Shown here piece by piece: positions 1 through 35,645 of a stretch of DNA of 64,000 nucleotides (positions within the stretch are counted from its first letter, which is position 1; the number at the start of each line of letters is the position of its first letter). This DNA is from Escherichia coli (GTDB lineage Bacteria; Pseudomonadota; Gammaproteobacteria; Enterobacterales; Enterobacteriaceae): NCBI RefSeq assembly GCF_003334815.1, contig NZ_QOWO01000005.1; one strand, 5' to 3'. The position numbers were made by a program, and so were the translations under genes. The notes below the pieces were generated by a model that had not been told where the DNA came from, did not search any database, and saw nothing but the letters and a program-made list of their open reading frames with translations.

Positions 1-979
1 GCTGAATATCCGTCGGCGGTATGGTGCGCGCCAGTTCACGCATCCGCAGCTCGATGGCGGCCATGTCGTTGCCAAGTGCAGCAGGCGAAAGTTGTACCAT
101 CGCAATACGATGCAACAGGCCGAGCATTTCCACCAGCAACGCTTCCCACTCGATACCACGGGCAGCGGCTTCATTAATCAGCGCCATTACGCGCTCGCCG
201 TTGGCCTCGACCATCGCTTCAACCAGCGACAGCGCCTGATCGTCGTCAAGCGTACCCAGCATCGCACTGACCGCCTGGGTTGAAACCTGGCCGTCACCGC
301 TGGCAATCGCCTGGTCGGTCAGACTTAAGGCATCTCGCAGGCTGCCTTCAGCGGCGCGTGCCAGCAATTGCAGCGCCCGCGGCTCGTGAGCGATATGTTC
401 TTCGTTGAGGATGTGCTCAAGCTGATGGCGAATTTGCTCGACATCCAGCGCCTTGAGATGAAATTGCAGACAGCGTGACAAAATCGTCACCGGCAATTTC
501 TGTGGATCGGTCGTCGCCAGCAGAAACTTAACGTGCTCCGGCGGCTCTTCAAGGGTTTTTAACAGTGCGTTAAAGCTGTGGCGCGACAGCATATGCACTT
601 CGTCGATCAGATAAACTTTGAAACGACCACGCGCCGGAGCGTACTGGACGTTATCCAGCAGGTCGCGGGTATCTTCAACTTTGGTGCGCGAGGCGGCGTC
701 GATTTCAATCAGATCGACAAAGCGCCCCTGCTCGATTTCACGACAGTTATCGCACACGCCGCACGGCGTCGCGGTAATGCCGGTTTCGCAGTTTAGCCCC
801 TTCGCCAGCAGTCGGGCGATAGAGGTTTTTCCGACGCCACGGGTGCCGGAAAAAAGATAAGCATGATGAATACGCCCTAACGACAAGCCGTTCGCCAGTG
901 CGGTCAGCACATGTTCCTGGCCGACGACGTCAGCAAAGGTTTGTGGGCGCCATTTTCGGGCTAAGACCTGATAACTCAT
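1..979 (-). CDS. dnaX: DNA polymerase III tau/gamma subunit, N-terminal ~326 codons (3' end lies beyond window start)
   Basis: Minus-strand reading frame visible in sequence starting ATG at 977-979 (rc), encoding MSYQVLARKWRPQ...; not a single ORF-track entry. Matches recalled DnaX N-terminus with Walker A GTRGVGKT. Confidence 0.9.
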   Translation of the reverse strand, partial: MSYQVLARKWRPQTFADVVGQEHVLTALANGLSLGRIHHAYLFSGTRGVGKTSIARLLAKGLNCETGITATPCGVCDNCREIEQGRFVDLIEIDAASRTKVEDTRDLLDNVQYAPARGRFKVYLIDEVHMLSRHSFNALLKTLEEPPEHVKFLLATTDPQKLPVTILSRCLQFHLKALDVEQIRHQLEHILNEEHIAHEPRALQLLARAAEGSLRDALSLTDQAIASGDGQVSTQAVSAMLGTLDDDQALSLVEAMVEANGERVMALINEAAARGIEWEALLVEMLGLLHRIAMVQLSPAALGNDMAAIELRMRELARTIPPTDIQ

Positions 980-1107
980 TGGCAGGCTCTGAAACGCTGG
1001 AAGGTGGATTCACGAAGGGGTAATGCTAACACAGCCCCGTCAGAACGGCGAGGCTGAATGCACATCTTGTGCTGTCCGTAGCGTGGGCAGCACAAGACTG
1101 GCGATAA

Positions 1108-1659
1108 TTAATGGCCCGGGAACGGGACAAGGCTGTAGCTGGTAATGCCCTGTTTTTCGAGACGCTGTTCGCCGCCGAGATCGAACAGGTTGATAATGAA
1201 CGCAGCGTCAGCCACTTCACCACCCAGACGACGGATCAGTTTAACGGTCGCTTCGATAGTGCCGCCGGTTGCCAGCAGGTCGTCCACCACCAGAACTTTG
1301 TCGCCCGGTTTGATGGCATCAACGTGGATCTCCAGCTGATCGGTGCCGTATTCCAGGTCGTAAGTTTCACTGATGGTTTCACGCGGCAGTTTGCCCGGTT
1401 TACGGACCGGTACAAAGCCAACGCCCAGACCCAGAGCTACCGGAGCGCCAAACAAGAAGCCACGCGCTTCGGTGCCGACAACTTTGGTAATGCCCGCATT
1501 TTTGTAACGCTCAACCAGCAAGTCGATGCTGAGAGCGTAAGCTTTCGGGTCTTCCAGTAAGCTGGTGACATCGCGGAAAAGAATGCCGGGTTTTGGGTAG
1601 TCCTGAATGCTTTTGATGCTATTTTTGAGATACTCAAGCTGCTGTGCAGTCGCGGTCAT
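1108..1659 (-). CDS. apt: adenine phosphoribosyltransferase
   Basis: ORF 1108..1713 (-); trimmed to internal Met [17 protein letters not shown]..., giving 183 aa as recalled for Apt. Confidence 0.93.
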
Positions 1660-1811
1660 AAGTGTATGCCTGCTTGTTACGGTGGTACTCACGGCGCGTT
1701 TTAAACGTATCAAAAGTAACAGTTGTTTAACCTTTGACCGCCTGCGCCTGTGCTCGAAAACGCCAGAATGTACTGGCTGTACGCAATAATTGCAACTGCG
1801 ATTGTTGTGCT

Positions 1812-2189
1812 TCAGTGCTTTTCTTGCTTTTCATCAATCACCGGAATTCGCCACATATAGAAAAGCAAACAGGCGAGAATTACCAGCAACATGATGCGCA
1901 CCCATGGCATCTGGACGAACCACAGAGAAATGGCAAACGTGAGCAAAATAAGCAAAATCGCCCGCGGTTTGACGCCGCGCGGCATCGCATGATGTTTCTG
2001 CCAGAAACGTAGATAGCTGCCAAACCATGAGCGGTACAGCAACCAGGCGTGAAAGCGCGGGGAAGAACGGGCAAAGCACCAGGCCGCCAGCAGGATAAAC
2101 GGCGTCGTCGGTAATACCGGTAATACCACGCCCAGCGTACCCAGCACTACCGCCAGCCAGCCAATGATGATTAAAATGATTCGTTGCAT
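1812..2189 (-). CDS. ybaN: small inner-membrane protein, DUF454 family
   Basis: ORF 1812..2189 (-), 125 aa, hydrophobic; position between apt and priC as in E. coli. Confidence 0.85.
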
Positions 2190-2258
2190 ATTGAGTGTTG
2201 TCAGCTTACAGAGTGGCTACTTTAGCATAACAATTATCATTTTCATTGAGGTCTTATC

Positions 2259-2786
2259 GTGAAAACCGCCCTGCTGCTGGAAAAACTGGAAGGACAGCTC
2301 GCTACGCTGCGTCAGCGTTGTGCCCCGGTGTCACAGTTCGCCACGCTAAGTGCTCGTTTCGACAGGCATCTTTTTCAGACTCGTGCGACAACACTACAGG
2401 CTTGTCTCGACGAGGCGGGCGATAATCTGGCTCCGCTTCGTCATGCAGTTGAGCAGCAACAGCTGCCGCAAGTGGCCTGGCTGGCGGAACATCTGGCGGC
2501 ACAACTGGAAGCCATCGCGCGTGAAGCCTCCGCCTGGTCATTGCGCGAGTGGGACAGTGCACCACCGAAAATTGCCCGCTGGCAGCGTAAACGTATTCAG
2601 CATCAGGATTTTGAGCGGCGGCTACGTGAGATGGTTGCCGAACGCAGAGCCCGTCTGGCGCGGGTGACCGATCTCGTGGAACAGCAAACGCTGCATCGTG
2701 AAGTGGAAGCCTATGAAGCGCGCCTGGCACGCTGCCGCCATGCGCTGGAAAAAATCGAAAACAGGTTAGCGCGTTTAACCCGCTAG
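2259..2786 (+). CDS. priC: primosomal replication protein N''
   Basis: ORF 2259..2786 (+), 175 aa; start codon reads GTG in the sequence; translation matches recalled PriC. Confidence 0.9.
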
Positions 2787-2799
2787 CAATGGAGAGAAT

Positions 2800-2961
2800 A
2801 TGTCACTGGAAAATGCCCCTGACGATGTCAAACTGGCTGTCGATTTGATTGTGCTGCTGGAGGAAAATCAGATCCCTGCCAGTACCGTGCTGCGCGCGCT
2901 GGATATTGTAAAGCGTGATTATGAAAAGAAATTAACGCGCGATGATGAGGCGGAAAAGTGA
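2800..2961 (+). CDS. ybaM: small protein of unknown function (DUF2496), 53 aa
   Basis: ATG at 2800 to TGA at 2959-2961 read manually (below ORF-track length cutoff); 14 nt downstream of priC. Confidence 0.75.
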
Positions 2962-3014
2962 GAAATAAATGGGGTCGCTAAATGTCCCCTAAGGTTGCGG
3001 GCAAACGCAAAACT

Positions 3015-3113
3015 GCCTGATGCGCTACGCTTATCAGGCCTACACCGCTCCTGCAATATATTGAATTCTTGCGGTTTCGTAGGCCGGATAAGGCGGTCAC
3101 GCCGCATCCGGCA
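3015..3113. repeat. REP/BIME cluster (two REP units)
   Basis: gcctgatgcgctacgcttatcaggcctaca and gtaggccggataaggcggtcacgccgcatccggca; typical REP palindromes. Confidence 0.8.
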
Positions 3114-3142
3114 TGAACAACGCGCACTTTGTTAGCAATCTC

Positions 3143-3174
3143 GGGGCAACTAAATGTTGCCCCCTTTCGTTTTT
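3143..3174 (+). terminator. rho-independent terminator-like hairpin after priC-ybaM
   Basis: Perfect 8-bp stem ggggcaac / gttgcccc with loop taaat, followed by a T-rich tract. Confidence 0.55.
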
Positions 3175-6100
3175 ACCCTACCGCTGGCGTCGGGTCATCG
3201 CCTTTGTAGTCGCGTTTTACTTCCGTCACCTCATCGCCCTTCTCGTTGTGCAGATGCACTTCAAGCTGGTTAAAGGCAATGTTGATGTCGTTTTCACGGC
3301 ACAGCTGATCGATAGTACGGTTCAGCTCATCGACAGTACGACTACGGTCACGCAGTTCACGCACATACAGACGCAGCTCATGATCCAACGTGCTGGCACC
3401 AAATGCCGTAAAGAAGACTTCCGGCATTGGTTCGTGCATCACCCTTGGGTGCTCAGTCGCCGCCTTCAGTAACACTTTACGCACTTTTTCCAGATCGGAG
3501 CCATAGGCCACGCCGAGACGGATCACCAGACGCGTAGTAGTGTCAGTCAACGACCAGTTGATCAGACGCTCGGTAACAAACGCTTTGTTCGGGATGATCA
3601 CTTCTTTGCGATCGAAATCGGTAATCGTTGTCGCACGAATACGGATCTTACTTACCGTCCCCGAGAAGCTACCAATGGTTACCGTATCGCCAATACGCAC
3701 CGGACGTTCGAATAGAATGATCAAACCGGAGACGAAGTTACCGAAAATTTCTTGTAAACCAAAACCAAGACCTACGGATAATGCTGCGGCCAGCCACTGG
3801 AGTTTATCCCAAGAGACGCCCAGCGATCCGAACACCGTCATCGCACCAACAGCAATAATGATGTAGTTAAGGATGGTAGTAATGGCATACGACGCGCCCT
3901 GGCGCATATTCAGTCGCGAGAGCACCAGCACTTCCAGTAAACCAGGCAGGTTGCGAATCAACGCCCAGGCCACCATTGAGGCGATAATCGCAAACAACAG
4001 ACTGCCCATGGTGACGTTTTTCACCACCGCAGCGCCAGCTTCAGTGCCGTTGTAATGCCAGAGCGTGATGCTGTCGAGATAGCTGAACACGGTGATCAAA
4101 TCGGACCAAATTGCCCAGAACATGACACCGAACAGCGCAAACATCAGCAACATGGTAATACGCAGCGTCTGCTGGTTAACTTGCTCCAGTGCAATGGTGG
4201 GTTCTTCCGGCGGTTCAGCACCTTCTGCGCCCTCTTTCACCAGATTCTGCCGACGCGCCAGCGCACGACGCCAGGCGATACGCCGCGCCGCTACGCTTAA
4301 GCCACGCAGTACCGTCTGGTACAGCAGGTTCCAGATGATCACCAGATAAACGGTTTCAATCCAGCGTCCTGCCAGACGCAGCGTAGTGTAGAAGTAGCCT
4401 GTAGCAGTCAGCACCATCAGCGCAATCGGGATTATCGACAGCACGGTAATGGTGACCAGTCGCATGGTGTGCGACTCTTTATCACGCCAGCTTTCGCGGC
4501 ACATCGGCCATACCAGGAAGGCAATCAGCAGCAGGTTGAAGAAAATCATCGCTTGCCCCAGCACATCATCCATCAGATGCAGCGGGGAAAGTTCTGCCAC
4601 CACAGACCAGAAATGGATAGGCAGCAATGCGAGACTGATGCGGACAATTTGCCGACGCCAGTGGCTGGTCTGCTGTTCCGGCATGCCGAAGTGACGTACG
4701 GCAACGCCGTTTTTCTCCAGTACCTTCCAGCACAGGCCAAACACCAGCCAGAATATCGCCAGTTTTTTGCTGAACGACCATAGCAGTTCGCTGATGTTGA
4801 GCTGCATGGTCAACAGAATCAGGCCAACCGCGAGAATAATCAGGCACACCGGCAGCGCACGGATCAGGTCGATAAGGATCGCTTTTGGTGTGTTGAGCTG
4901 GCTGTCGTTACGCAGGGAACCCACAGCGGAAGCCAGTTTTTGTTGATACGCTTTCAGCCAGCCCAGACGCCAGTGGATCAGCCCGGCAATCAACAGCAGC
5001 GGCAAACCAGCGAGGAAAGCGATAAAAACGGCGGGCCAGGCTTTTTGCCAGTTCACCGTGATTTTCATCGACTTAAATTCATCTTTCAGGCTTTGCGGGA
5101 ACGCTTTGATCCAGTCCCAGTCCATTGGACGGTTACTGTTCACCCAAAAGATTTGCTGAGTCAGGATGGATTTCAGGTTTTTCGACACACTCATTAACTG
5201 CTGCTGGTTGATTTGCAGGTTAATGGCCATCATCAGCTGGTTACCCAACTGTTTGTTGAGTTGATCCAGCAATTCGCGACGCATATCAACCACTTGCAAT
5301 AACGCATCGTGAACTTCGCTGTTGACTTCGTTGGTGTGACCTTCTTCCAGTTTGTTGACGAACGCATCGCTCTGGAAGAGTGCATCACGCTGCTGGTTAA
5401 CTTCAAACTGTTCGAGACGCAAATCCGCGATGCGGTTGGTCATGTTTTCCAGTTCATCCGCCGAGGGCAGCGTTTGTTGTTGCTGGTAAAGGATACGAGA
5501 CAACAGCAGGCTGCCCTTCAGGACGGCAATCTGCTCTTTAATATTGCGTTCCGATTGCAGCGCCCGCTCCAGCCAGTTTTTGACTTTAATGTTTTGCTGC
5601 ATCAACTGATTACCGTTTTCAGTCGCGGTAATCAGACGCTGACTTAACTGCTGGTTAATTTCCAGTTCCTGCTTCACCAGCGGATTAGCCTGAATACGCG
5701 CGGCTTCATCCGGGGAGACGGCTTCCTGCGCCGTTTTTTCGGTTAAAGTCAGGCGCTTGCTGTTTACCGCTTCTTGCAACAGTTGTAACTGGTGCTCCAG
5801 ACGAGCGCTGTTCGCCGTCACGTAATCACGTTGCTTTTGCAAGGTATCCTGCAAGACGGTGTTCCCTTCCAGGCTTTTACGCTGCTGGTCAATCTCCGCA
5901 TTCAGCAACGCCTGCTGGGCCTGCATTAACACTTTCTGGCTGGGACGTAAGGCTGTCTCGCCGACATCAGTCCCATCCAGACGACTGCGAATTTGTTGCA
6001 GCTGCTGCGAAGCGTTATACATCGCATTTTGCACGCGTTCGGGCTGCGTCTGTAACGAAACCAGCTGGCTGTTATAAGACGCCAGATCGTTTTGTGCGTT

Positions 6101-6535
6101 TTGCAAATCGTCCAGCGCCTGGGCAACGCGAGTTTCCAGCTGGCGCAACGACAGCGTGCTCAGAATTTTGCGCGTTTCTTCGTCGTTATCGACATCGCTA
6201 AGTGCTGTTAACGCCGCGGTCGCCTGGCGCATTTTTTCCGGCGCTTCAGCGACTTTTTGCCGTAGCTGAACTGTCTCTTCTTTTATGCGATCGATTTTAT
6301 CGAGGGTGGCTAATGTATCTGTCAGATCCTGCTGCACCAGTTTGTCCTGAGCAGAAAGATCTTTTTGTTTATTTAGTGAGTCAAGTTGCGCCTGCAGGTC
6401 CGCTTTTGTCGGCAGATCACCATTCGATGACGCTCGCGCAAACGCCGTGTTCTGGCATAACAAGACAAAAACAAAAGCAATAAATGCTGAAAAAACAAAA
6501 TGCCGTGATCGTTTGTAATACTGGAACATAGTCAT
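3173..6535 (-). CDS. mscK: potassium-dependent mechanosensitive channel MscK (KefA/AefA)
   Basis: ORF 3173..6535 (-), 1120 aa; long coiled-coil periplasmic region, multiple TM helices, MscS-like C-terminal domain. Confidence 0.95.
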   Translation of the reverse strand: MTMFQYYKRSRHFVFSAFIAFVFVLLCQNTAFARASSNGDLPTKADLQAQLDSLNKQKDLSAQDKLVQQDLTDTLATLDKIDRIKEETVQLRQKVAEAPEKMRQATAALTALSDVDNDEETRKILSTLSLRQLETRVAQALDDLQNAQNDLASYNSQLVSLQTQPERVQNAMYNASQQLQQIRSRLDGTDVGETALRPSQKVLMQAQQALLNAEIDQQRKSLEGNTVLQDTLQKQRDYVTANSARLEHQLQLLQEAVNSKRLTLTEKTAQEAVSPDEAARIQANPLVKQELEINQQLSQRLITATENGNQLMQQNIKVKNWLERALQSERNIKEQIAVLKGSLLLSRILYQQQQTLPSADELENMTNRIADLRLEQFEVNQQRDALFQSDAFVNKLEEGHTNEVNSEVHDALLQVVDMRRELLDQLNKQLGNQLMMAINLQINQQQLMSVSKNLKSILTQQIFWVNSNRPMDWDWIKAFPQSLKDEFKSMKITVNWQKAWPAVFIAFLAGLPLLLIAGLIHWRLGWLKAYQQKLASAVGSLRNDSQLNTPKAILIDLIRALPVCLIILAVGLILLTMQLNISELLWSFSKKLAIFWLVFGLCWKVLEKNGVAVRHFGMPEQQTSHWRRQIVRISLALLPIHFWSVVAELSPLHLMDDVLGQAMIFFNLLLIAFLVWPMCRESWRDKESHTMRLVTITVLSIIPIALMVLTATGYFYTTLRLAGRWIETVYLVIIWNLLYQTVLRGLSVAARRIAWRRALARRQNLVKEGAEGAEPPEEPTIALEQVNQQTLRITMLLMFALFGVMFWAIWSDLITVFSYLDSITLWHYNGTEAGAAVVKNVTMGSLLFAIIASMVAWALIRNLPGLLEVLVLSRLNMRQGASYAITTILNYIIIAVGAMTVFGSLGVSWDKLQWLAAALSVGLGFGLQEIFGNFVSGLIILFERPVRIGDTVTIGSFSGTVSKIRIRATTITDFDRKEVIIPNKAFVTERLINWSLTDTTTRLVIRLGVAYGSDLEKVRKVLLKAATEHPRVMHEPMPEVFFTAFGASTLDHELRLYVRELRDRSRTVDELNRTIDQLCRENDINIAFNQLEVHLHNEKGDEVTEVKRDYKGDDPTPAVG

Positions 6536-31828: not shown

Positions 31829-34183
31829 CTATTTTGCAGTCACAACCTGCATACCAGACGGTTCATTTTGCAGCGCCAGAGTCAGAACTTCCTCAATGCG
31901 CTTCACAGGATGAATGTCCAGATCGGCAATTACGTTGTCAGGAATCTCTTCCAGATCGCGTTTATTTTCGAACGGAATTAGCACTGTTTTAATCCCGCCG
32001 CGATGCGCTGCCAGGAGTTTTTCTTTCAAACCACCGATCGGCAGTACCTGACCACGCAGAGTGATCTCACCGGTCATTGCCACATCGGCACGAACCGGGT
32101 TACCGGTCAGGCAAGAAACCAGCGCGGTGCACATAGCAATACCGGCACTCGGACCATCTTTCGGCGTCGCACCTTCCGGTACGTGGACGTGGATGTCACG
32201 TTTTTCGTAAAAATCAGGGTTGATCCCCAGTTTTTCCGCACGCGCACGAACCACCGTTAACGCCGCCTGAATGGACTCCTGCATCACTTCGCCGAGCGAA
32301 CCGGTATAGGTCAGTTTGCCTTTACCCGGAACACATGCGGTTTCAATGGTCAGCAAGTCACCGCCCACTTCCGTCCACGCCAGACCGGTTACCTGACCGA
32401 CACGGTTTTCGTTATCCGCGCGACCATAGTCGAAACGCTGAACACCGAGATAGTCATGCAGGTTATCGCCGTTAATTTCGATATGTTTTAATGACTTATC
32501 GAGCAGTAACTGCTTAACCGCTTTGCGACACAGTTTGGAGATTTCACGCTCCAGACCACGCACGCCCGCCTCACGGGTGTAGTAACGAATAATGCCGATA
32601 ATGGCGCTATCGTCGACGGTCAGCTCACCTTTTTTCAGTGCATTACGTTCAATCTGCTTCGGCAGCAGGTGACGTTTGGCGATGTTCAGTTTTTCATCTT
32701 CGGTATAACCGGAGAGGCGAATCACTTCCATACGATCCAGCAGCGGTGCCGGAATGTTCATGGAGTTCGACGTCGCGACAAACATCACGTCGCTGAGATC
32801 GTAATCCACTTCCAGGTAGTGGTCGCTGAACGCTACGTTCTGCTCTGGATCCAGCACTTCAAGCAGTGCAGAGGCCGGATCGCCACGCATGTCAGAAGAC
32901 ATTTTGTCGATCTCATCGAGCAGGAACAGCGGGTTTTTCACGCCCACTTTCGCCATTTTCTGGATCAGTTTACCCGGCATAGAACCGATGTAAGTACGGC
33001 GGTGACCACGGATTTCCGCTTCATCACGCACGCCGCCCAGCGCCATACGGACATATTTACGCCCGGTGGCTTTGGCAATGGACTGACCAAGAGAGGTTTT
33101 ACCTACCCCCGGCGGCCCTACCAGGCAGAGGATCGGTCCCTTGATTTTGTTGACACGGCTTTGAACCGCAAGATACTCAAGGATTCGATCTTTCACGCGC
33201 TCCAGACCATAATGGTCGGTATCAAGGATTTCCTGCGCCTGACGCAGGTCTTTTTTGACCTTGCTACGCGCATTCCACGGCACCTGTACCATCCAGTCGA
33301 TATAACCACGCACTACGGTCGCTTCTGCCGACATCGGAGACATCATTTTCAGCTTCTGCAACTCTGCTTCCGCTTTCTCTTTTGCCTCTTTCGGCATCTT
33401 CGCCGCGTCGATTTTGCGCTTCAGGGCTTCGTTTTCGTCCGGCGCGTCGTCCATTTCACCGAGTTCTTTCTGAATAGCTTTCATTTGCTCGTTCAGATAG
33501 TACTCACGCTGGGATTTCTCCATCTGCTTTTTAACGCGGTTGCGAATGCGTTTCTCAACCTGCAGCAGATCGATTTCCGATTCCATCATTGCCATCAGAT
33601 ATTCCAGACGTTCGTTAACGTCGGACATCTCCAGAACAGACTGTTTGTCAGCCAGTTTCAGCGGCATATGTGCAGCAATGGTATCCGCCAGACGCGCCGG
33701 ATCGTCGATGCTATTCAGCGACGTCAGCACTTCTGGTGGGATTTTTTTGTTCAGCTTGATGTAGCCTTCGAACTGGCTGATTGCAGTACGCACCAGCACT
33801 TCCTGTTCCCGCTCATCAATGGTCGGCGACTCCAGATACTCCGCCTTCGCAGAAAAGTGTTCGCCATTGTCAGAGAGCGCAGAAATACGCGCGCGCTGTA
33901 ACCCCTCGACCAGCACTTTGACGGTGCCGTCAGGCAGTTTCAGCATCTGCAATATAGAGGCCACGGTCCCGACGGTGAAAAGATCGTTTACACCCGGCTC
34001 ATCCGTTGAAGCTTCTTTCTGCGCGACCAGCATAATTTTTTTATCATGGTCCATCGCCGCTTCCAGACAACGGATAGATTTTTCCCGCCCGACAAATAAG
34101 GGGATGACCATGTGCGGATAAACCACCACATCGCGCAGCGGCAATACGGGGATTTCAATGCGTTCAGAACGCTCAGGATTCAT
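31829..34183 (-). CDS. lon: ATP-dependent Lon protease
   Basis: ORF 31829..34228 (-); trimmed to [33 protein letters not shown]..., 784 aa; Walker [10 protein letters not shown], catalytic Ser region PKDGPSAG. Confidence 0.96.
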
Positions 34184-34266
34184 AGAGCTCTCTCTTAGTT
34201 TAATTTCCGCCAGGTAATCAGATGACACGACTGTGCTTCACGCCATCTATTAACATGTACGTCAGT

Positions 34267-34293
34267 ATATGGGGATGTTTCCCCCACATTCAA
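34267..34293 (-). promoter_or_regulatory. lon heat-shock (sigma32-type) promoter containing the GGGG-N7-CCCC motif
   Basis: Minus strand reads TTGAAT-gtgggggaaacat-CCCCATAT, resembling sigma32 -35 and -10 elements; about 85-110 bp upstream of the lon ATG. Confidence 0.7.
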
Positions 34294-34370
34294 CGCCGAG
34301 AATAGAGGAAAAATTAAAGGGGAGATAAAATCCCCCCTTTTTGGTTAACTAATTGTATGGGAATGGTTAA

Positions 34371-35645
34371 TTATTCACCAGATGCCTGTTGCGCTTCCGG
34401 CTTGCCATAAATCAGCAACGGTTTGCTTTGACCATCAATTACCGACTCGTCGATAACCACTTTTTCGACGTCTTCCATGGACGGCAGATCGTACATGGTA
34501 TCGAGCAGTGCGGCTTCTACGATGGAACGCAGGCCACGGGCACCGGTTTTACGCGCCATCGCTTTCTTAGCGATAGCATCCAGCGCCTCGTCACGGAATT
34601 CCAGATCCACGCCTTCCAGATTAAACAGCGCCTGATACTGCTTGGTCAGGGCGTTTTTCGGCTCTTTGAGGATCTGAATCAGAGCTTCTTCGCTCAGTTC
34701 ATTCAACGTTGCGACAACCGGCAGACGACCAATAAACTCAGGGATAAGACCAAACTTGATCAGATCTTCCGGTTCAACCTGCGCCAGCAGCTCGCCTTCG
34801 CTTGCTTTGTCGGACTTCGCTTTTACCGTCGCGCCAAAACCAATGCCGGAGCCGGTTTCTACACGGTGGGAAATCACTTTATCCAGACCGGCAAACGCAC
34901 CGCCACAAATAAACAGGATCTTAGAGGTATCAACCTGCAAGAATTCCTGCTGCGGATGTTTACGCCCACCTTGCGGTGGAACAGCAGCTACCGTACCTTC
35001 GATCAGTTTCAACAGTGCCTGCTGTACGCCTTCACCGGAAACGTCTCGGGTAATGGACGGGTTGTCTGACTTACGAGAAATCTTGTCGATTTCATCGATG
35101 TAGACAATACCACGCTGTGCTTTCTGGACATCGTAGTCGCATTTCTGCAACAGCTTCTGAATGATGTTTTCAACGTCTTCACCCACATAACCGGCTTCGG
35201 TCAGTGTAGTCGCGTCGGCCATGGTGAACGGAACATCCAGCAGGCGCGCCAGCGTTTCAGCCAGCAGCGTTTTACCGGAACCGGTCGGACCGATCAGCAG
35301 AATGTTACTTTTGCCCAACTCGACGCCATTGCTGGTATCGCCGTTGCGCAGACGTTTGTAATGGTTGTATACCGCGACCGCCAGCACTTTTTTCGCCTGT
35401 TCCTGGCCGATAACGTAATCGTCCAGGTGGTTGCGAATTTCATGCGGCGTCGGTAGCGCACTGCGTTCACGATGCGGTGCAACTTCTTTAATCTCTTCGC
35501 GAATGATGTCGTTACATAAATCAACACATTCGTCGCAGATATACACGGATGGACCGGCAATCAGCTTGCGCACTTCATGCTGGCTTTTGCCGCAAAAAGA
35601 GCAATACAGCAATTTGCCTGAGCCATCTTTGCGTTTATCTGTCAT
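34371..35645 (-). CDS. clpX: ATP-dependent Clp protease ATPase/unfoldase
   Basis: ORF 34371..35645 (-), 424 aa; N-terminal zinc-binding cysteines, Walker A GPTGSGKT. Confidence 0.97.

Follow-up and report, generated by a model that had tools for sequence, protein, structure and literature searches.

The gap between clpX and lon in this window, by which we mean the whole 64,000-nucleotide stretch of Escherichia coli DNA analyzed here, raises the question of whether the lon promoter of this strain carries an intact target for IS186, the insertion known at this gene from E. coli B, and of what makes that target a repeated one. IS186 is an IS4-family element with the transposase WP_001300563.1, and the lon promoter is said to have been described as an IS186 hotspot of E. 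coli by saiSree, Reddy and Gowrishankar in 2001, reportedly in J Bacteriol 183:6943. We read the locus, with a probability of roughly 0.95, as a wild-type, unoccupied E. coli lon promoter that contains a preferred IS186 target, and nothing in the analysis contradicts this reading.

All of the features described below lie on the minus strand. The interval 34184-34370, which the original prediction had taken as the region upstream of lon, is exactly the 187-bp clpX-lon intergenic gap, bounded on the left, as read on this strand, by the clpX stop codon TAA (34373-34371) and on the other side by the lon start codon ATG (34183-34181). The clpX coding sequence (34371..35645, 424 aa) was assigned from its open reading frame and from the clpX annotation in matching genomes. 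The lon coding sequence (31829..34183, 784 aa) is intact in translation and is annotated as lon, endopeptidase La, in the matching genomes. The Lon protein of the window shows full identity with that of K-12 and B, WP_001295325.1, the comparison being made with the copy in E. coli FELIX_MS533; because of this identity, the real start of lon is ATG 34183. The mechanical list of open reading frames opens lon 15 codons too early, at GTG 34228, giving a product of 799 aa that takes in 34184-34228. Between clpX and the lon promoter, an intrinsic terminator hairpin of clpX, with an 11-pair stem and a T-run after it, is located at 34316..34340.

Over its central 25 kb (22000-46999), the window shows 100% identity to several wild E. 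coli isolates, namely O157:H16 98-3133 and isolates from opossum, chicken, swine and human. No K-12 or B strain appears among the best 30 matches to 22000-46999, so the source is probably not an expression strain.

Within the intergenic gap, the minus strand reads TTGAAT (34293-34288), GT (34287-34286), GGGGG (34285-34281), AAACAT (34280-34275), CCCC (34274-34271), and ATAT (34270-34267). The promoter string quoted in the original prediction from TTGAAT onwards is therefore present letter for letter at 34293-34267. The hexamer TTGAAT (34288..34293) is assigned as the lon -35 box from the sequence itself, from a sigma70-type scan, and from the conservation of CGTTGAAT-N13-CCCCATATAC described below. 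The sigma32-type -10 box CCCCATAT occupies 34267..34274 and contributes, with its CCCC, the C-run of the IS186 target; overlapping it at 34264..34269 is a sigma70-like -10 hexamer, TATACT, with an 18-nt spacer from TTGAAT, which is a candidate by consensus match only (9/12). The heat-shock consensus of sigma32 (RpoH) is CTTGAAA / CCCCATNT. TTGAAT, a 13-nt spacer and CCCCATAT agree with this consensus (a TTGAA-type -35 box and a CCCCATNT -10 box about 13-14 nt apart), and the lon promoter thus appears to fit the sigma32 heat-shock type.

The two boxes are thus parted by the 13-nt spacer GTGGGGGAAACAT, and the G-run of the spacer and the C-run that belongs to the -10 box together compose the motif GGGGG-AAACAT-CCCC. 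This motif (34271..34285) is unoccupied, makes up only 15 nt of the 187-bp intergenic region, and can be read as G5-N6-C4 or as G4-N7-C4. The original prediction was at odds with itself here, as its heading gave G4-N7-C4 and its quoted core, GGGGAAACATCCCC, is G4-N6-C4; with five G in the sequence, both readings fit. PMC6925257 gives the preferred target of IS186 as 5'-GGGG(N6/N7)CCCC and attributes it to saiSree et al. 2001 and others. Both readings of the lon motif fall inside this published form, and the motif has the at least four G, 6-7 nt spacer and at least four C of a preferred IS186 target, in line with the predicted match to the IS186 target preference.

The bare pattern is no rarity. 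GGGG-N3..7-CCCC occurs once in the 64-kb window, with the lon motif as the sole match, vs 2.4 occurrences expected from dinucleotide-preserving shuffles; there is no enrichment of the motif in the window, where the pattern is no commoner than chance. Its meaning is best sought not in enrichment but in its position, since other genomes carry IS186 inserted at these same nucleotides.

We searched the whole 64-kb window for the ends of IS186 with the terminal repeat CATAAGCGCTAACTTAAGGGTTG, allowing up to three mismatches, and obtained 0 matches. Because no IS186 end is found anywhere in the window, the lon site is uninterrupted, as predicted, and with its empty site the window falls outside the lon::IS186 class of alleles that accounts for the Lon deficiency of the E. 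coli B type. From the intact promoter and reading frame, lon would be expressed normally in the source strain.

To place this empty site beside occupied ones, 13 filled alleles were fetched and their junctions read; 11 of them have both junctions intact. The clpX-side junction is the same in 13/13 alleles, ...TTGAATGTGGGGGAAACATCCC followed by the IS186 start ATAAGCGC. On the lon side, the 11 intact alleles show the IS186 end GCGCTTAT followed either by GGGGAAACATCCCCATATACT, a 13-bp duplication, or by GGGAAACATCCCC, a 12-bp duplication, the latter in the MG1655 derivative CP097884 and the clinical isolate XH2172. A filled allele, as in BL21(DE3) and MG1655 derivatives, reads GGGGGAAACATCCC, IS186 (1337 bp), GGG(G)AAACATCCCC. 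The duplicated target sequence is GGG(G)AAACATCCC, and in the window its bases lie at 34272..34284, as GGGGAAACATCCC (13 bp) or GGGAAACATCCC (12 bp, from 34283); these lengths hold to within 1 nt at each end, since the IS ends, C-ATAAG...CTTAT-G, may share a base with the target. Between the junctions, nine alleles hold 1337 bp of IS186, and the two others, in which the transposase is annotated as frameshifted, hold 1335-1336 bp. The insertion parts TTGAAT from CCCCATAT by 1.3 kb.

Both orientations of IS186 occur at the lon site, and all 11 two-junction alleles are inserted inside the same 12-13 nt. The filled alleles come, among others, from laboratory strains of the B lineage and of K-12, from a water isolate, and from Chinese, Taiwanese and US clinical isolates. 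The occurrence of both orientations, two duplication lengths and unrelated backgrounds indicates repeated, independent insertion events at one position. BL21(DE3), REL606, B and their derivatives are filled at the same nucleotides, so that the B-lineage insertion site does lie here, and the comparison of lon promoters that the original prediction had called for places the K-12-type empty form in the window and the IS186-filled form in B/BL21. Nor does the hotspot lie elsewhere in the lon region or in a differing motif, as the filled alleles have their junctions in the same motif. The empty allele of K-12 type has the same locus, nucleotides, promoter boxes and Lon protein as the window, with no difference of substance; it is in the wider 25 kb that the window is closer to wild isolates than to K-12. 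The lon::IS186 allele of E. coli B, BL21 and REL606 shares the flanks and target bases of the window but carries, between its -35 and -10 boxes, a 1337-bp IS186 with a 13-bp duplication, neither of which the window has.

Published insertions agree with these junctions. An IS186 insertion called with breseq at clpX/lon +88/-100 with a 12-bp duplication (PMC3861542) converts to window position 34283, within the G-run. The same study assigns the insertion to the promoter's -10 region and reports that precise excision can undo it (PMC3861542), and IS186 was found in the lon promoter at a single site in either orientation (PMC3045373). The Lon protein is strongly lowered in insertion strains (PMC4618355), and mucoidy accompanies the lon insertion (PMC11251521). 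Taken together, IS186 would transpose into the motif by staggered cuts within the G-run and the C-run, with duplication of 12-13 bp, and would thereby drive the -35 and -10 boxes 1.3 kb apart. A drop in Lon synthesis would follow, giving the Lon-deficient state of E. coli B and BL21. Other phenotypes of the Lon-deficient state in the literature are low-level multidrug resistance and raised IS activity. The junctions, the target fit and the intact reading frame behind this explanation come from the present analysis, and the lowered Lon level and the frequency of the hotspot from the literature.

How often the site is occupied was assessed with a 787-bp query across it against 5,426 complete E. 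coli genomes, the filled alleles being collected by junction queries. The query was matched in 5,425/5,426 genomes. The site is unbroken in about 5,370 of the 5,426 genomes and occupied in about 56 (~1%), mostly B-lineage laboratory strains. Insertions in the B orientation amount to 45 genomes with full junctions (carriers in this orientation include E. coli B, BL21(DE3), REL606, C41 and NEB Express) plus four truncated BL21-derivative assemblies, and insertions in the opposite orientation to seven genomes. The 61 bp around the motif are found at ≥99% identity in 5,355/5,426 matching records. IS186 itself is present in 2,214/5,426 complete genomes (41%) and absent from 59%; as the site is at risk only in IS186 carriers, the liability is restricted to 41% of the complete genomes. 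For the source strain, likewise, a fragile-site risk would exist only if IS186 is present elsewhere in its genome.

The four truncated assemblies, BL21(RP) (NZ_CP084683.1), Rosetta2-DE3, BL21-RIPL and CP081489, retain only the first 50 bp of IS186 beside clpX. In the fetched stretch 3149-3340 of BL21(RP), this IS186 fragment lies beside clpX and is followed by colanic-acid genes (mannose-1-phosphate guanylyltransferase, cpsG). Such remnants in BL21 derivatives reflect a rearrangement mediated by IS186 or else an artefact of assembly.

To compare the lon site with other insertions of the element, the empty targets were rebuilt for five other IS186 site sequences at four loci. These are GGGG-AGTGAT-CCCC at dnaJ/mokC, the two variants GGGG-ATTGCT-CCCC and GGGG-ATTACT-CCCC at entD/hokE, GGGGG-TAAAA-CCCC at cysH-hok/cas3, and GGGG-AAAAT-CCCC on an NDM plasmid. 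All five have the form G4-5/N5-6/C4, with 12-bp duplications that begin within the G-run and end within the C-run, and this bears out the assignment of the lon motif to the target preference of IS186. The lon site shares with them the G4-5/N5-6/C4 core and a duplication running from the G-run to the C-run, in the same layout, with 12-13 bp at lon vs 12 bp at the five other site sequences. The other sites are, however, longer palindromes (GCGGGG-N5/6-CCCCGC), whereas the lon site is without the outer GC pairs. Three of the four other loci adjoin hok-family toxin genes (mokC, hokE, and the hok gene near cas3), and at lon the C-run doubles as the -10 box of a promoter.

It could be argued that no mechanistic hotspot exists, that the repeats at the lon site come only from strong selection for the loss of Lon under antibiotics, unstable proteins or mucoidy, and that the motif match is incidental. 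The documented insertions are indeed mostly from selection experiments or laboratory lineages, B-derived strains dominate the B-orientation set, the GGGG...CCCC pattern is no commoner in the window than chance, as noted above, and lon point mutations are also recovered in the same selections. Selection alone, however, would permit insertions throughout the promoter or the 2.3-kb gene, and what is seen is a single clpX-side junction in 13/13 alleles and an insertion within the same 12-13 nt in 11/11 two-junction alleles in both orientations. Moreover, IS186 at loci unlinked to the loss of Lon (mokC, hokE, cas3 and the plasmid) likewise lies in a G4-5/N5-6/C4 context and has a duplication of the same geometry. 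The shared junctions and the same anatomy at unlinked loci therefore argue that target preference and selection act together; selection for the loss of Lon accounts for part of the frequency of the insertion, and as the entire explanation it is very unlikely.

The promoter can also be followed through the relatives of E. coli. We scanned for CGTTGAAT-N13-CCCCATATAC in one genome per species (298 Gb) and found at least 120 stretches, with E. coli, Shigella, E. fergusonii and S. enterica subsp. enterica not among the species listed. Among the at least 120 stretches listed, 113 have a Lon N-terminus within 400 bp downstream. The boxes stand upstream of lon in the listed Enterobacterales, Vibrionaceae (including Vibrio and Photobacterium) and Aeromonas, and the remaining seven listed stretches, in unrelated phyla, are about as many as a rough calculation by hand predicts to match 18 fixed bases by chance in 298 Gb. 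The sigma32-type boxes are thus conserved upstream of orthologous lon in 113 listed species genomes, and both lon promoter boxes appear to be old and constrained and the spacer to be unconstrained. The 13-nt spacer varies widely among the listed species, its least variable positions being 2 (T), 8 (A), 12 (A) and 13 (T).

A G-run that completes GGGG...CCCC occurs in only 2 of the 113 listed genomes, Escherichia albertii and Escherichia sp. MOD1-EC7003. The commonest listed spacer, GTGTGGGAAACAT, is carried by 22 genomes of Citrobacter, Enterobacter, Kosakonia, Phytobacter, Pluralibacter and Salmonella enterica subsp. arizonae, and is one base off the E. coli spacer (GTGTGGG vs GTGGGGG). Within the listed sample, the G-run thus appears to be specific to Escherichia, and the C-run to be the conserved -10 box. 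It is this combination of a constrained C-run and a lineage-specific G-run that would make the site a hotspot. The lon promoter shares TTGAAT, the 13-nt spacer and CCCCATAT with sigma32 promoters, but its G-rich spacer with the IS186 target is found only in Escherichia in the sample.

One may further suppose that the G-run is kept almost universally in E. coli not by accident but as a maintained, reversible contingency switch for Lon, with IS186 going in and precise excision taking it out. The one observation that points to such a switch is the phylogenetic pattern, and we regard the switch as very improbable. The conservation of the motif within E. coli is in itself unremarkable, because E. 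coli genomes share at least 99% identity over the entire intergenic region.

That the G-run/C-run inverted repeat is instead a functional hairpin or protein-binding regulator of lon, with its likeness to an IS186 target being secondary, is next to inconceivable: GGGG...CCCC can pair, with a predicted single-strand DNA hairpin of -4.9 kcal/mol, but this fold is no better than those of shuffled sequences (z = -1.45; 18/200 shuffles fold as well), and the G-run is missing from 111/113 listed orthologous lon promoters in which both boxes are kept and the spacer is variable. With a fold not above shuffles and a G-run not conserved outside Escherichia among the listed species, we rejected a hairpin or cruciform as the meaning of the motif, and a hairpin role for the lon repeat seems unlikely.

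The clpX terminator at 34316-34340 is an inverted repeat of G6...C4 form as well, with a gap of 9 nt that is outside the N6/N7 spacing of IS186. IS186 is absent from the terminator repeat in all 13 filled alleles examined.

The original prediction is right in both observation and interpretation, and it describes a known feature of textbook standing. What is added here is the census of occupancy (~1% of complete genomes) and the one-base, Escherichia-specific spacer change that appears to lie behind the hotspot; the value is practical, not conceptual. With a wild-type lon promoter and an intact Lon, the strain is not a protease-deficient host of the B type. If its genome carries IS186, spontaneous Lon-deficient (mucoid) variants are to be expected exactly at 34272-34284, and variants of this kind have been linked to low-level multidrug resistance. 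PCR across 34184-34370 would show an insertion as a size increase of ~1.35 kb.

A new IS186 at lon can also recombine with resident copies and give rise to large rearrangements, as in E. coli FELIX_MS533 (NZ_CP137696.1 / NZ_CP137697.1). Here the IS186 at the lon site has recombined with a resident IS186 beside hokE/entD, and the chromosome shows the order clpX-IS186-entD (fetched stretches 3400-4736 and 2718-6456). The segment from lon to hokE is deposited as a circular 128.8-kb "plasmid", pEcFELIX533.1, which may represent either a replicon that was genuinely excised or a tandem amplification that was resolved incorrectly.
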